From IMG/VR virus record IMGVR_UViG_2645727901_000008: 64,000 bases of DNA; one strand, given 5' to 3'. This document shows, piece by piece, positions 10,862-25,758 of this stretch (within the stretch, counting starts at the first letter, position 1; the number at the start of each line of letters is the position of its first letter). The notes under the pieces were generated by a model, which worked only from the letters and a program-made list of their open reading frames with translations, ran no database searches and was not told the origin of the DNA. Source of the stretch: a virus. Lineage: Duplodnaviria; Heunggongvirae; Uroviricota; Caudoviricetes. Position numbers and translations under genes: made by a program.

Positions 10862-10884
10862 ACTGCGTTAGCACTTTGAACATG

Positions 10885-10927
10885 GCGACAACACATCTTG
10901 GTGGCTGCGTTGTCGCTGTATGTTTTT
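10885..10927 (+). terminator. Rho-independent terminator after the two secreted-protein genes
   Basis: GCGACAAC...GTTGTCGC stem followed by TGTATGTTTTT. Confidence 0.5.
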
Positions 10928-10949
10928 ATAATATAAAGCATTAAAGTTT

Positions 10950-11567
10950 TCATTTTTGTCGGATCTTTTCCAGCATATTTAATTCATTATCACTTTCTGC
11001 TGCTGAGACGGTTGGCCTCACATTTCCGAAATATTTCCTGTGAGACTCATGACTTATGTATTCACCGACAGTTTCATTCTTGAATATACGAATTTGACAT
11101 ATGCGAGATCCAACAATAAGTTCTACAGGGCTATTCCCATGATTAAATAACTCTAAAGATATACAGCCTCTGTACCCTGGTTGTATCATGGTATTTAATG
11201 AAAGACCAAGCCTTGTATAGCTGCTTCTGGACAATACATCAGCGTAGCAATCTGGTGGCAAACAAACATATTCTAATGTTGTTGCCAGTACCACTTGATT
11301 CGGGTAAACAATGAATCTATCCCCAAGATCTCTCCTTGTTTCCTGGAAAAATGTTCTGATTGGTTGATGAGTATCATTGTTTTTTGATGGAATTAACTCT
11401 ATTGACGGCTTCCTTGTCATAATAGACACTAAAAAATCGTAACCAAGTCTAAGGTCTATGGTGAAGTTCCCAATTTGGTTTTTATTTAGAAGAGGTTCAA
11501 TGAACAACGACTCAGGTTCTTCTGATTCATAATATTGCAGCAATTCAGCTTTGCTTAGGAGATTCAT
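10950..11567 (-). CDS. dCTP deaminase-fold (Dcd/dUTPase-superfamily) protein
   Basis: IDLRLG, VYPNQVVLATTLEYVCLP, SSYTRLGLSLN and QPGYRGCISLELFNHGNSPVELIVGSRICQIRIF align motif-by-motif with E. coli Dcd as I recall it; ATG at 11567 overlaps upstream stop (ATGA). Confidence 0.65.
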   Translation of the reverse strand: MNLLSKAELLQYYESEEPESLFIEPLLNKNQIGNFTIDLRLGYDFLVSIMTRKPSIELIPSKNNDTHQPIRTFFQETRRDLGDRFIVYPNQVVLATTLEYVCLPPDCYADVLSRSSYTRLGLSLNTMIQPGYRGCISLELFNHGNSPVELIVGSRICQIRIFKNETVGEYISHESHRKYFGNVRPTVSAAESDNELNMLEKIRQK

Positions 11568-12637
11568 TGTGCACTCCATTTTTCAAGAATCATTACGTTT
11601 CGAATCGATTTTTCAACCAAATCATTTATAGTTTTTTCTATGGCTTCTTGTGACAACCCAGACCATATACCCGTAGGTTTTTCCCATTCAGAGCATAAGT
11701 ACTGCCAGCTGCTGTTAATAAAAGCATGCATTTCATTGTGGTCGCGAATAACAAAAGGACGCACATTATCAAAAGCTGATTTCACATCAAGCAAAGGTGT
11801 CGGCAATGTCAAACAAGGAGAAATAATCTGCCCACCATTATGTAAGGCTGATATCACAGCATTGAACATGCCAACAACTGGATTTTCCACTTTGTTCAAA
11901 AAGTCGCTTACAATTTTAACTCTATCTTCTGTGGATGGGTGAGTATAGCTTGCAGGATGAGAGCCAGCTAATTTGTATAAGAAATCTACCCCACTTTTTC
12001 CAATAAATTGGGCACTAAATAGATCTGCAAAATATTCTCTGCAATGATTTATCCAAATAACATCAGGTAGATTACTCCATTCTGGTCCAGGAAGTGTGCC
12101 TTTGTCCTTGGAACGATAGTTAAGACAGGCAAGCTCAGAAATACCTTTGCTAATATCAACGAAATGTCCCAATTCGTGATATAAAGGTATAGAGCATAAT
12201 GGTCGTCTTCTGTACATTTCAGGTAATGAAATCTGAATTAATTCGACATCGAATTTGACATTTAAAACTTCGTCAAATAAAGAATACAAATTCTTGTTTA
12301 CAGACTTAAAATAAAACCCATGCATATCTGGAGATAGGGCTGTGGTTATAAGTGTTTTTTCACTTATCCATTTTTTACAGGCATCATTTAAGCAATAGAC
12401 AATCTCGTAGGGAATTTTCTTTGTAGTACTGCCAGTGAAAAAATTAACTGCATCGGTGATAAAAAAAGTACAATCCGCAATTATTTTATCAGCAACATTC
12501 ACATGGTTTTCATAGAGCTTATCCACCGCTTCTTGTAGAACAGCAAGATATTCATGCATGTCTTTAGAAAAATAGGGAGATTCTGATATCTCCCTTAGCT
12601 TATTTCGAACTAATGTAAGTTGTGTAAATGCAAGCAT
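11564..12637 (-). CDS. HExxH zinc-metallopeptidase-like protein (357 aa)
   Basis: YHELGHFVD motif with downstream acidic/His residues; start ATG overlaps upstream stop by 1 nt. Confidence 0.5.
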   Translation of the reverse strand: MLAFTQLTLVRNKLREISESPYFSKDMHEYLAVLQEAVDKLYENHVNVADKIIADCTFFITDAVNFFTGSTTKKIPYEIVYCLNDACKKWISEKTLITTALSPDMHGFYFKSVNKNLYSLFDEVLNVKFDVELIQISLPEMYRRRPLCSIPLYHELGHFVDISKGISELACLNYRSKDKGTLPGPEWSNLPDVIWINHCREYFADLFSAQFIGKSGVDFLYKLAGSHPASYTHPSTEDRVKIVSDFLNKVENPVVGMFNAVISALHNGGQIISPCLTLPTPLLDVKSAFDNVRPFVIRDHNEMHAFINSSWQYLCSEWEKPTGIWSGLSQEAIEKTINDLVEKSIRNVMILEKWSAQ

Positions 12638-12942
12638 TAAATGTACTCTAATACATTCCGGGCCATTACGGGTTCTAACATATCTTCGCTAGTTACTTTG
12701 GTTAGCACCTGGGCGAGCGCCTTAGTGTGGCGTATCTCTACCGCGAGCGAGATGGACTCTCTGTGAGAAGGAATCTGTAATTGATCACCTTTATCTACAC
12801 TTAAGTTTGAGGCTTCTCTGATCACCTCATAAACCCGTAACTTTAACTGCTGTGACACTTCTTGTTGAGATGCTATAAGCTGAAGTACAGTCTTGATCAA
12901 CTTCAAAGAATCAGAAGCTTGCTGAGGAACCGCATAGAGCAT
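12637..12942 (-). CDS. Small helical protein (101 aa), first gene of the three-gene cassette
   Basis: ATG at 12942 with GGAGGGG RBS; coupled to the next gene. Confidence 0.5.
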   Translation of the reverse strand: MLYAVPQQASDSLKLIKTVLQLIASQQEVSQQLKLRVYEVIREASNLSVDKGDQLQIPSHRESISLAVEIRHTKALAQVLTKVTSEDMLEPVMARNVLEYI

Positions 12943-13077
12943 AACCCCTCCTTTCCCTTATCTATAACCGCTTTCTTTTTTCTGTGTATGTTAAAAGTAG
13001 AAGCGGTTTTTACCTTTTGTAATATATATAGTGTCTAAAACTAACTTTGGCACTATATATGGCATGATATCTATGTT

Positions 13078-13123
13078 TTAAAGACACAAAAGCTCTGTTA
13101 AAACAGAGCTTTTGTGTCTTTAA
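13078..13123. repeat. Perfect 17-bp-stem palindrome AAGACACAAAAGCTCTG-TTAAAA-CAGAGCTTTTGTGTCTT upstream of the three-gene cassette
   Basis: Read directly from sequence; no flanking U-tract on either strand. Confidence 0.6.
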
Positions 13124-13267
13124 CTTGATCATTTTCTCGCTGAAGTGTATGTCAGGCTTAGCTCATAATCAAGTTGCTTCCAAGCTAAAAATGAGCTAGC
13201 TCCCTGAAACACTAAGAGCGGGGTGTTTCATTTATTAGCGTTGGGCCTGACGGTGTGTAGGTGAATT

Positions 13268-13555
13268 TTAGCTCATTACTCGATAACGACGGGGAATGGA
13301 ATTCTCCATCAGGCCACGAATTACTCCCGCCTCACGTAGTTCCTCTGTCTCCCAGTATCTGTTTGTCACCAGATCGAGGCTGGCTATGACCTTGTGCCGG
13401 TCATTCGGCATAGCTAATTTTTCTGCTATAACCATCAGTGAAAACTCTTCATCCAGTAGAATTTGATAGCAGTTTTTTGATAGTTCCACTTCCCTTATGA
13501 GACTGAAACGTCGCTGGATTGTGGCAGTAGAGTAAGTGAAATCTATTTTCTTCAT
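13268..13555 (-). CDS. Hypothetical protein (95 aa)
   Basis: ORF in track; no motif recognised. Confidence 0.4.
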   Translation of the reverse strand: MKKIDFTYSTATIQRRFSLIREVELSKNCYQILLDEEFSLMVIAEKLAMPNDRHKVIASLDLVTNRYWETEELREAGVIRGLMENSIPRRYRVMS

Positions 13556-13614: not shown

Positions 13615-14541
13615 TTAACTAACAATCCAGTCCATAGCAACCATATCCTCTGGCGCTAAATCAATAGCATGGATTTTCCCATCCCGGATAGTGCGCCAGT
13701 GCTTCCTTGATCCGCCTTCGGGCCATACCCATACACCTTCAGACCATGAGGCGCGACGGCATACCGTTGCATATCCACTTCTGATCTTCTCTCTGGCGGT
13801 ATGCAGTGACAGATTATCTTTTGGGATTTCCGGTAAAGGATGATGGATTGCCTGAAACAGCCCCATCTTGGGATGATACCAGCGTTTGTTGCGTGGTTCT
13901 GCCTCCGACATAACCTGCTTGAAGGCTTTCTGGAAGGGGGCCAGGGCCACAATGGAGCGTCGCGCAAGCAAACCATCTGGAGTTAAAAACTCATGCGTAT
14001 CGGTGGGAATCCGGAAAGCGTTAACCAGGTTGCGACATTTGGCTTCGGTCAGGCCACATTTCGCCGCCAGCTGGCGGTAGCCAATGTAGCCTTCCGGAAT
14101 ATTGCCTTTCTTTATTTGCTCGAGTGTTTCAGCGACCATCGATACTTGTGCTGATACCTCGGCTACCTGGGCATTTACGGCGTTGATCCGGCGTTCATGC
14201 TCAAGATGCATTTGCGCCATTTCAGCCAGGATTTCGGCTTTTGATTTTAACTGTACCCGGGCATTCTCCAGTTCGCGCCAGCGGTCCACCAGCCGGGCGG
14301 TGAATTCGGGAGAGAGCTGCGCGACGACGACAATACTATCGCGCTTGCCTTGCTCGCCTTCGAAGACGTAATAGCTCGCCGGGCGGCCTGCGGTGGGCTT
14401 TTCCTCAATTTGAGGAAAAGATATTACGCCCCGTTCCGCCAGGTGTTCAATGGTGCGTTTAACGTTATCAGGGCGCTTACCTACCAGTTCCGCGATCTCA
14501 ATGCTGGTCATTGTCGCTTTTTGAGAGATGGACAGATTCAT
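13615..14541 (-). CDS. Rha-family regulator / antirepressor-like protein with C-terminal DUF2829-like extension (fused form)
   Basis: N-terminus MTSIEIAELVGKRPDNVKRTIE is Rha-like; C-terminus homologous to the separate 66-aa ORF at 51564-51764; start overlaps upstream stop. Confidence 0.65.
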   Translation of the reverse strand: MNLSISQKATMTSIEIAELVGKRPDNVKRTIEHLAERGVISFPQIEEKPTAGRPASYYVFEGEQGKRDSIVVVAQLSPEFTARLVDRWRELENARVQLKSKAEILAEMAQMHLEHERRINAVNAQVAEVSAQVSMVAETLEQIKKGNIPEGYIGYRQLAAKCGLTEAKCRNLVNAFRIPTDTHEFLTPDGLLARRSIVALAPFQKAFKQVMSEAEPRNKRWYHPKMGLFQAIHHPLPEIPKDNLSLHTAREKIRSGYATVCRRASWSEGVWVWPEGGSRKHWRTIRDGKIHAIDLAPEDMVAMDWIVS

Positions 14542-23813: not shown

Positions 23814-24181
23814 TTAATCGTACCAAGCTGGAGCACATCCTCGAATATGCCAGACAGCAGAAGCGCTTTGGTCAGCATTGCAAAATTCCGCCAGGAGATA
23901 TGGTTGAAATCGTGGAGATTGCCATGCGTAAGGCTGGCAACTATCCGGTAACTCCGGATAGTTGGATAAGCTGTAGTGATCGAATGCCTGAAAAGGGCCA
24001 GAACGTGCTTATTTCGGTGAATTTCGATAGCTCTCTGGTTGAACCGCTAATATGCTCCGCACGCTATACCGGAAGCACCTTTCGGCGCGGAGATGCAACG
24101 ATTAAGCCGGGTAATGGTATTGAGCAAGCAACTCACTGGATTCCGCTACCGGAACCGCCGCAGGAGGTTAACCGTGGCTAA
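23810..24181 (+). CDS. Hypothetical protein (123 aa)
   Basis: ORF with stop/start overlap. Confidence 0.45.
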   Translation: MINRTKLEHILEYARQQKRFGQHCKIPPGDMVEIVEIAMRKAGNYPVTPDSWISCSDRMPEKGQNVLISVNFDSSLVEPLICSARYTGSTFRRGDATIKPGNGIEQATHWIPLPEPPQEVNRG

Positions 24182-25153: not shown

Positions 25154-25758
25154 CCAGAATCACTGAAGAGCGTATATCAGAGATTATTTCCCGTATCGAA
25201 ATGTATGGTCACGGAGCTGGATATACGGCAGATGAAGTATTGGAAATAGCCCAGCAGATGCTGGCCTTGAGACAAAAAGAGCAACATGAAAGTAATACGT
25301 GTAGATTGAATTTTGAGCAGTGGCTGGAACAGCAACGCGGGAAAATCGATGTGGACTGTGGTTGTGTGTCCACTGAAACATTCATGCACTGGCTGCGGGT
25401 AGCTTACGAGGCTGGCAACTATCCGGATATTCCGGATAGTTCGGCGCAAGCACCAGGGAAGGGGGGGTTCCCCGGAGAGCGGATCCGAATTAAGCCGCAT
25501 GTTTACCGTGAACTGGTTAACCGCCTCCACGATACAGCGATCAAGTGTGCTGGCACCCAGCAATTACGGGAAAGAATTAGCCGCGTTTTGGGCGAAGTTA
25601 TTACACCAGATCGTCATAAACAAGCCGAGAAAAGCGGCCTGGAAAGGAGTCATCTTGAGGCGGCATTAAACATTAAACCGGGGCATACGCTAGGTGTCAT
25701 TGATGCCATGTTGGTTCATGAAATGGCTAAGGCGTTATTGCCACTGGAGGCTGATTAA
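25135..25758 (+). CDS. Hypothetical protein (207 aa) sharing a segment with ORF 16419-17042
   Basis: HVYRELVNRLHDTAIKCAGTQQLRERI resembles HIYRELVNALRDVAIECHGTDQLRARL. Confidence 0.45.
   Translation: MAQKEMTRITEERISEIISRIEMYGHGAGYTADEVLEIAQQMLALRQKEQHESNTCRLNFEQWLEQQRGKIDVDCGCVSTETFMHWLRVAYEAGNYPDIPDSSAQAPGKGGFPGERIRIKPHVYRELVNRLHDTAIKCAGTQQLRERISRVLGEVITPDRHKQAEKSGLERSHLEAALNIKPGHTLGVIDAMLVHEMAKALLPLEAD

Follow-up and report, generated by a model that had tools for sequence, protein, structure and literature searches.

Introduction

RNase III processes hairpins in the leaders of the E. coli rnc and pnp transcripts, in the lambda N leader and at T7 R1.1, and internal loops or bulges usually interrupt the stems of its natural substrates. 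The strong stem-loop of the ompA 5' untranslated region stabilises its message, a kind of 5'-terminal protection that some 14 unpaired 5' nucleotides would normally abolish. At the DNA level, ImmR/ImmA of ICEBs1, CapH/CapP of the cyclic oligonucleotide-based antiphage signaling system (CBASS) and DdrO/IrrE, with its radiation/desiccation response motif (RDRM), are protease-controlled repressor modules whose operators measure ~17-20 bp. A perfect palindrome at positions 13078-13123 of a 64,000-nucleotide stretch from a Caudoviricetes virus (IMG/VR record IMGVR_UViG_2645727901_000008; the whole stretch is called the window below) is compared here with these systems. It precedes a three-gene cassette, A-B-C, encoded on the minus strand, and is a cassette-intrinsic cis-regulatory element of a known class, that of conserved leader stem-loops or operator-like palindromes. 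The reading developed below, to which about an even chance is given, is that of a transcribed leader hairpin controlling the level of the cassette mRNA. The element marks the control region of a compact, widespread and uncharacterised three-gene module.

Geometry and uniqueness of the palindrome

An inverted-repeat search of the window gave two arms of 22 nt each (13078-13099 and 13102-13123), 100% complementary and separated by a 2-nt centre, for a total of 46 bases. An earlier sequence-only reading had the position right but undercounted the pairing, describing a 17-bp stem and a 6-nt loop. Its judgement that the repeat is too long and too perfect to have arisen by chance was borne out: this is the longest perfect inverted repeat of the 64-kb window, with an arm of 22 nt against 11 nt for the next best, and the longest perfect arm in 30 simulated 64-kb first-order Markov (Markov-1) sequences was 8-12 nt. 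As operon-strand RNA the palindrome forms a stem of 21 bp capped by a 4-nt loop (-31.1 kcal/mol), and ~70% of the pairs of this stem are A:U. The 101-aa first gene starts 135 nt farther on, with its ATG at 12942 (minus strand), in agreement with the description of the palindrome as lying upstream of the three-gene cassette. No second copy of the half-site is present in the window when up to three mismatches are allowed, and no Rfam 15 family was found for the leader region, where the best score was 27 bits against a threshold of 63 and all matches were generic hairpin matches.

Conservation and covariation

Relatives with and without the cassette were compared, as the sequence-only reading had proposed, and the palindrome was found to track the cassette and to keep to a fixed zone. 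Every relative in which B is at least ~56% identical and whose contig extends to this zone has a perfect palindrome, 104-147 nt ahead of the start codon (ATG) of gene A. Far from being absent from relatives, the element occurs in all close ones that carry the cassette. The arms of E. coli, Pantoea, Dickeya and a gut metagenome contig (L067) have the sequence TAAAGACACAAAAGCTCTG in common and are identical at 39-40 of 40 positions, as against 35-66% identity in the remaining columns of the leader (binomial P 1e-6 to 1e-19).

In Proteus the arms (TTTTTAAAGCATTAAGGCTCTATA / TATAGAGCCTTAATGCTTTAAAAA) differ at 14 of the 40 positions, and all of the differences, including one mirrored indel, are matched in the partner arm. 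Every substitution in the Shewanella arms (TATTATTAAGACATAAAAGCACTGT / ACAGTGCTTTTATGTCTTAATAATA) is likewise mirrored in the opposite arm. Across an alignment of eight lineages, 10 of 20 pairs have changed on both sides, a number that none of 500 shuffles reached, and pairing collapses when the partners are slid by one to three columns. Because so many pairs covary and neither control reproduces the pattern, the pairing is, on the evidence of this alignment, under selection. The stem of the window measures 21 bp, those of L067, L009, L071, L074, L078 and L087 measure 20-27 bp, and the centre varies freely between 2 and 6 nt. Locus L087, with a B protein 58% identical, has in the same place a perfect palindrome of unrelated sequence, with arms of 28/29 nt, and in Aeromonas only the inner 8 bp are still paired.

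Mirrored changes of this kind can also arise by mutation. Template switching is described in three reports as homogenising arms, producing mirrored multi-base changes and inverting spacers, and as keeping perfect repeats conserved in Proteobacteria and maintaining RNA stems (PMC8604942, PMC8794818, PMC5941160). All three signatures of such quasipalindrome hotspots are seen in the palindrome. The central dinucleotide (13100-13101) is flipped between copies that are otherwise ~99% identical, the window and L083 differing from L084:1319-1364 and L086:2819-2864 by TT versus AA on the operon strand.

These features invite an explanation confined to DNA, in which the element would be a supercoiling-sensitive cruciform or hairpin at the promoter, or else a functionless palindrome maintained by template switching and hitch-hiking with the cassette. 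The central flip is the spacer inversion expected of template switching or of a DNA hairpin (PMC8604942), the AT-richness of the element favours extrusion, and the conservation of perfect inverted repeats in Proteobacteria exceeds expectation, which has been attributed to template-switch correction (PMC5941160). A neutral palindrome, however, would not hold a fixed distance to promoter and ATG at 40/40 identity while the nearby leader drops to 35%, nor would it be replaced in place by another long perfect palindrome, as happened in L087. Template switching is a mutational mechanism rather than a function, and it explains the perfection of the repeat but not its retention at a fixed place; a structure acting or persisting at the DNA level only is considered improbable. 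Since perfection, mirrored changes and the flipped centre all match template switching, they do not by themselves separate a DNA-level from an RNA-level function. The locus provides a clean natural case of a long palindrome evolving by mirrored changes and centre inversion, and so is relevant to the question of how much covariation by itself can prove about RNA structure.

Searches aimed at a wider sampling of the element and its genes gave little beyond these lineages. Profile scans of metagenomes and viruses with protein A returned near-identical copies only, searching plasmids and phages with B by tblastn brought no intermediate lineage to light, and the 15-nt promoter block had 105 matches in viral contigs, just one of them with a weak downstream inverted repeat. 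In Nitrosomonas supralitoralis (L015:690-736; B 36% identical), an AT-rich palindrome with 19/20-nt arms and no T-run is found ~200 nt upstream (z-score -6.15), its arms (…GGCACAAA… / …TTTGTGCC ATCTTTGG) loosely resembling the enterobacterial arm; this is the only distant homologue with a comparable AT-rich palindrome. In L089:324-542, and also in L090 and L091, where B is 46% identical, the palindrome is missing and a 72-aa gene of the XRE family, with a helix-turn-helix (HTH) domain, lies directly upstream of A on the same strand. From its position, this gene appears to provide a different way of regulating that operon.

Predicted promoter and leader transcript

The palindrome is probably transcribed, as far as promoter prediction can indicate. 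A position-weight scan of all lineages returned TTGATT-17-TACACT as the best-scoring and the only positionally conserved promoter. Its predicted -35 element, TTGATT (13167-13172, minus strand), is the top match to the sigma-70 position weight matrix and holds the same place relative to the palindrome in five enteric lineages, while the predicted -10 element, TACACT (13144-13149, minus strand), follows after a 17-nt spacer and lies inside the conserved block AGC(C/T)TGACATACACT. Variants of these elements across lineages are TTGAAT or TTGTCA at -35, the latter in Shewanella, and TAAACT at -10. The hexamers are identical at 10-12 of 12 positions, against 35-66% for other leader columns. Because TTGATT-17-TACACT agrees with the consensus at 8 of 12 positions, a simple consensus scan misses it, listing CTGACA-16-AATGAT and TTAAAA-18-TATAGT in its place, and its support thus comes from conservation.

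Transcription is predicted to start at 13137 (plus or minus a few nucleotides, minus strand), a position inferred from that of the -10 element. The palindrome would then begin ~14 nt past +1 and 20 nt past the -10 element and would occupy positions ~+15 to +60 of the transcript, within a leader of predicted length ~195 nt. An alternative promoter that also precedes the palindrome, CTGACA-16-AATGAT, whose -10 element is not conserved, would start at ~13121, within the first bases of the palindrome. Since both upstream candidates start at or before the palindrome, it is predicted to be transcribed from either. No conserved antisense promoter was found across the lineages.

Several other candidates in this region were rejected. 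TTAAAA-18-TATAGT, which follows the palindrome on the downstream side, was set aside as the main promoter on the grounds that position 2 of its -10 element is a covarying position of the second hairpin described below, reading TGTAGT in Pantoea, Dickeya and Shewanella. TTGACA as a -35 element has no -10 element conserved 16-19 nt downstream and sits in the spacer of the conserved promoter. A leader peptide was considered for a 25-codon open reading frame (ORF) from 13065, which is found in the window lineage only, and a LexA or CRP box was dismissed, the core being CTG-N5/6-CAG, of varying spacing, and not CTG-N10-CAG.

After a further 24 nt in the downstream direction, an inverted repeat at 13024-13060 (minus strand) forms a second leader hairpin. 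In the window ATATATAGTG (13060-13051) pairs with CACTATATAT (13033-13024) across a 17-nt loop, and the hairpin is conserved in seven lineages with loops of 17-19 nt. One of its pairs covaries from A:U to G:C (4:3), and G:U is acceptable on the operon strand only; RNAalifold recovers both leader helices. An unrelated repeat with 11-nt arms and a 17-nt spacer is found at a similar distance in Methylomonas (L040:3535-3573).

An RNA processing or stability element was among the roles offered in the sequence-only reading, and it is the best-supported class, favoured by the conserved promoter upstream, the mirrored changes and the second covarying hairpin, from which action at the RNA level would follow as an inference. 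On this proposal, the palindrome would be transcribed from the cassette's own sigma-70 promoter as the first of two stem-loops in the A-B-C mRNA leader, and its perfect A:U-rich helix, of at least two turns, would set the amount of full-length translatable cassette mRNA. It might do so through double-strand-specific (RNase III-type) cleavage or as a 5'-end stability determinant, or alternatively through partial termination at the U-rich descending arm. The outcome would be that a probably toxic dCTP-deaminase-like effector is held at a low basal level. If the hairpin does limit a nucleotide-depleting effector, it would offer an experimental handle for switching the system on and off, and the leader would, if the proposal is true, constitute a new two-hairpin motif for RNA family databases.

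Like the RNase III-processed leader hairpins, the element combines a duplex of at least 20 bp (two turns) with a small loop and a location in the 5' leader, and where it is kept it never falls below ~20 bp; the continuous duplex of ~20 bp or more that characterises RNase III substrates is present, with 21 bp in the window. Unlike those hairpins, its stem is perfect and its sequence is conserved more strongly than RNase III recognition requires, and cleavage here is proposed by analogy. With the ompA stabiliser it shares a strong hairpin near the predicted mRNA 5' end, but the predicted start leaves ~14 unpaired nt and the helix is much longer than needed; only under the alternative promoter CTGACA-16-AATGAT would the hairpin lie at the very 5' end.

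A number of observations weigh against a leader hairpin. The start site is a predicted one only, placed by a promoter with an 8/12 match that a simple consensus scan does not list. The 14 nt predicted to precede the stem make a longer overhang than is usual in classical 5'-terminal stabilisers, and RNase III cleavage is only a proposal. Across lineages, ~100 independent base pairs include no G:U and no bulge, which is unusual for selection on RNA only, although template-switch correction of inverted repeats could explain the missing G:U pairs. Relatives in which B is at most 49% identical have no such hairpin, and their leaders show no consistent strong fold (z-scores -2.6 to +1.5). In Aeromonas, the descending arm retains a sequence resembling that of the family while the partner arm has decayed. 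Finally, the combination of arms identical at 39-40 of 40 positions in E. coli, Pantoea and Dickeya with an abrupt switch in Proteus looks, on this sequence pattern, like sequence-specific recognition.

Comparison with DNA operators

Recognition of that kind would be expected if a dimeric or tetrameric protein bound the duplex at ~+15 to +60 in a sequence-specific manner and blocked transcription from the cassette promoter; the protein could come either from the cassette, as A or a domain of B, or from the host. Such an operator is the main alternative to the leader hairpin, though a rather doubtful one. In one version of it, the HEXXH protein B might relieve repression by cutting the repressor, by analogy with the ImmR/ImmA, CapH/CapP and DdrO/IrrE modules. 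The position of the palindrome, as read from the predicted promoter, is compatible with a roadblock operator. Its perfect Watson-Crick symmetry, with G:U in no lineage, suits a duplex site, and arms conserved far above the rest of the leader and then switched abruptly, with full mirroring, in Proteus are what co-evolution of a site and its protein would produce. Aeromonas retains one half-site sequence without its partner, and the XRE-type HTH gene that takes the palindrome's place in L089-L091 indicates that dedicated transcriptional control of the operon does occur.

As in the ImmR/ImmA-type systems, a palindrome separates the promoter from the first gene in an operon of mobile or defence type, and this operon encodes a HEXXH metallopeptidase-like protein. 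Unlike those systems, the module has no HTH partner, B falls outside Peptidase_M78 and any other Pfam family, neither A nor B has a fold neighbour in the PDB, and the site, at 46 bp, is two to three times the size of a typical operator. No HTH, ribbon-helix-helix (RHH) or other DNA-binding domain was detected in A, B or C by searches of Pfam, NCBIfam and PADLOC or by Foldseek with the confident models of A and B. Protein A is modelled as a helical bundle (predicted local distance difference test score, pLDDT, 87) and is mildly acidic (isoelectric point 6.1); its model has no significant PDB neighbour and none that is HTH-like. For protein B, neither the AlphaFold2 (AF2) model (pLDDT 95.8) nor a PDB profile search gave a PDB neighbour, and there was no Pfam match, including Peptidase_M78, despite its HELGH motif.

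The genetic context also speaks against an operator, in that no regulator gene constantly adjoins the cassette and the uniqueness of the half-site in the window makes a backbone regulator with several operators unlikely. The L087 palindrome is wholly different in sequence, and perfection and mirrored changes can come from template switching as well. The protein-binding palindrome suggested in the sequence-only reading thus has on its side the 39-40/40 arms of E. coli, Pantoea and Dickeya and the missing G:U pairs, but it wants a recognisable DNA-binding protein in the cassette.

Comparison with terminators

The lack of a U-tract that was noted for the palindrome holds for the full stem on both strands and in every orthologue; directly after the stem, the minus strand reads AAACAUAG and the plus strand ACUUGAUC. 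This statement needs the qualification that the outer part of the descending arm is itself U-rich, its outer 12 nt reading UUUUGUGUCUUU. The inner 8-bp core, AGCUCUGU/ACAGAGCU, has four G:C pairs (-10.5 kcal/mol), and this core with its UUUUGUGUCUUU tail resembles, in sequence, a weak intrinsic terminator.

It has therefore to be considered whether the element is an intrinsic and possibly bidirectional terminator or insulator, which would block read-through from the upstream operon of ant and a 95-aa ORF or attenuate the cassette's own transcripts. The core followed by its U-rich tail is present on the other strand too, by symmetry, and Aeromonas retains exactly this core (-11.7 kcal/mol) together with UUUUUGCUCUUU. 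In the distant homologues L062 and L065, real bidirectional terminators upstream are also perfect palindromes, with arms of 17-18 nt, and the palindrome shares with them the A-rich ascending arm, the U-rich descending arm and the perfectly symmetric DNA. It differs from rho-independent terminators in its 21-bp, mostly A:U stem, the missing U-run after the full stem, a GC core of just 8 bp and its place ~14 nt past a promoter.

A terminator scan does not call the palindrome, and its core stem is weak in comparison with the L062 and L065 terminators (-10.5 versus -23 to -28 kcal/mol). Proteus and L087 keep the long stem and lose the U-rich tail, which indicates that selection kept the pairing and not the U-run. 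Moreover, the element follows a promoter and not a gene, lying 145 nt past the stop of the upstream ORF, and in Shewanella the upstream gene is divergent, so that there is nothing to insulate against. An intrinsic terminator or insulator is accordingly given a small chance, and a merely generic terminator, which the palindrome does not look like, is unlikely. The long inverted repeats upstream of L062 and L065 were themselves tried as equivalents of the palindrome and rejected, as they are ordinary terminators with an A-run, a GC stem and a T-run.

The A-B-C module and its spread

Gene A (12637-12942, minus strand) encodes an all-helical, mildly acidic protein of 101 aa with the conserved N-terminus MLYAVPQ, which matched nothing in Pfam, NCBIfam or PADLOC. 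It is preceded by a Shine-Dalgarno sequence, GGAGG, read from the sequence at 12947-12951 (minus strand), and GGAGG or GGGGG stands before the ATG in all lineages. Gene B (11564-12637, minus strand) encodes a 357-aa putative zinc peptidase with an invariant HELGH (HEXXH) motif, and gene C (10950-11579, minus strand) a dCTP-deaminase-like protein of the Dcd/dUTPase fold (Pfam DCD, 1.3e-30; TIGR02274, 9.8e-33). None of the PADLOC models was matched by A, B or C.

Homologues of B occur in Proteobacteria, Bacteroidota and further phyla. Among 185,579 species-representative genomes, 58 loci were recovered; C follows B in 56 of them, and an ORF of ~100-110 aa precedes B in nearly all. The genomic settings of closer relatives are unrelated to one another. 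The cassette is chromosomal in Pantoea dispersa, lies on an island with AlpA in Dickeya and on an island adjoining integrase and QueC/TatD genes in Proteus mirabilis, and belongs to an element resembling Tn7 or a CRISPR-associated transposon (CAST), adjoining TniQ and Csy2, in Shewanella. The Aeromonas locus adjoins a UvrD-type helicase, one lineage is flanked by TnsA, and further neighbours include a type I restriction gene, an HNH gene and DNA-modification genes; cassette and palindrome are found together on gut metagenome contigs as well. Across these contexts no constant regulator neighbour was found.

No description of the cassette was found in literature and accession searches, and A-B-C is, from its gene content and neighbourhood, a candidate for an uncharacterised defence or toxin module. 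A more far-reaching idea, and a long shot, is that the perfect helix is a working part of an undescribed defence-type system made up of A, B and C. In one version the cassette promoter would yield a short hairpin RNA with an antitoxin or decoy function; in another, a protein of the cassette would read a sequence-specific RNA or DNA site in such a way that infection-triggered proteolysis or altered RNase activity switches the effector on. Either would represent a new family of cis/trans RNA switch that is absent from Rfam.

Phage-plasmid context and acquisition of the cassette

The window belongs to a P1/D6-like phage-plasmid of E. coli, and its flanks match 100 E. coli plasmids and phage D6 but no E. 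coli chromosome. The cassette genes are present in only 8 of the 100 flank-matching plasmids, the remainder having ~31 bp in place of 10864-13280, which assigns the palindrome to the inserted segment rather than to the backbone. Consistently, the palindrome was found in only 8 of 5,426 E. coli genomes, in each case with the cassette on a P1/D6-like plasmid and never on a chromosome. It is kept in all cassette-bearing E. coli and Salmonella plasmids and missing from cassette-less P1/D6-like plasmids. Close relatives are otherwise uninformative, five E. coli plasmids being 98% identical over the region and two seemingly divergent Salmonella plasmids being error-ridden assemblies with homopolymer indels.

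Comparison by blastn of the window with L067 and L085 delimits the whole mobile module (promoter, leader and A-B-C) at 10948-13178 on the minus strand. Homology between contexts starts 5-6 nt upstream of the -35 element and stops just past the stop of C, so that the indel relative to cassette-less plasmids (10864-13280) is wider than the module shared across contexts. These limits bear on whether the palindrome is an insertion boundary, a recombination site or a dispersed palindrome such as a repetitive extragenic palindrome (REP), a miniature inverted-repeat transposable element (MITE) or an attC-type site. Its distance of 55-160 nt from the upstream edge of the inserted segment lends this some plausibility, but the palindrome reaches neither the indel edge (13280) nor the module edge (13178), and the module's promoter separates it from the latter. 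The element is single-copy, recurring neither at the other end of the cassette nor elsewhere in the window; wherever it was found in an E. coli genome or in the plasmid collection, the cassette was there too; and its perfect stem is free of the bulges typical of attC. This group of explanations is very improbable, and the insertion boundary put forward in the sequence-only reading is ruled out because the palindrome lies 55 nt inside the edge of the homology shared across contexts, downstream of the module promoter.

On the minus strand, the cassette is preceded by immI-type genes (icd-like and the Rha-type ant, 13615-14541) and then by a 95-aa ORF (13268-13555). In cassette-less relatives this ORF has 103 aa (L002:4059-4370) and overlaps a convergent 130-aa gene. 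Gain of the cassette replaced the 3' end of the ORF plus ~31 bp and left no target duplication, and from these junctions the acquisition resembles an exchange across conserved flanks more than a clean insertion.

A stem-loop at 13205-13230, TGAAACAC-N10-GTGTTTCA followed by TTTATT on the plus strand, was called terminator-like. It falls within the 100-nt stretch 13179-13280, which arrived with the insertion and is not common to cassettes elsewhere, and nothing obvious on the plus strand is transcribed toward it. The Rha-type antirepressor gene at 13615-14541 is an intact 308-aa ORF in the window and is annotated by RefSeq as partial or frameshifted in several close plasmids (among L001, L002, L003, L004 and L006, which were compared). 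Elsewhere in the window, two perfect palindromes with 11-nt arms, 23938-23964 and 25417-25441, lie 1.5 kb apart and have the arm AACTATCCGG in common, reading CAACTATCCGG-N5-CCGGATAGTTG and AACTATCCGGA-N3-TCCGGATAGTT, respectively; a regulator of the backbone may bind them as a pair of sites.

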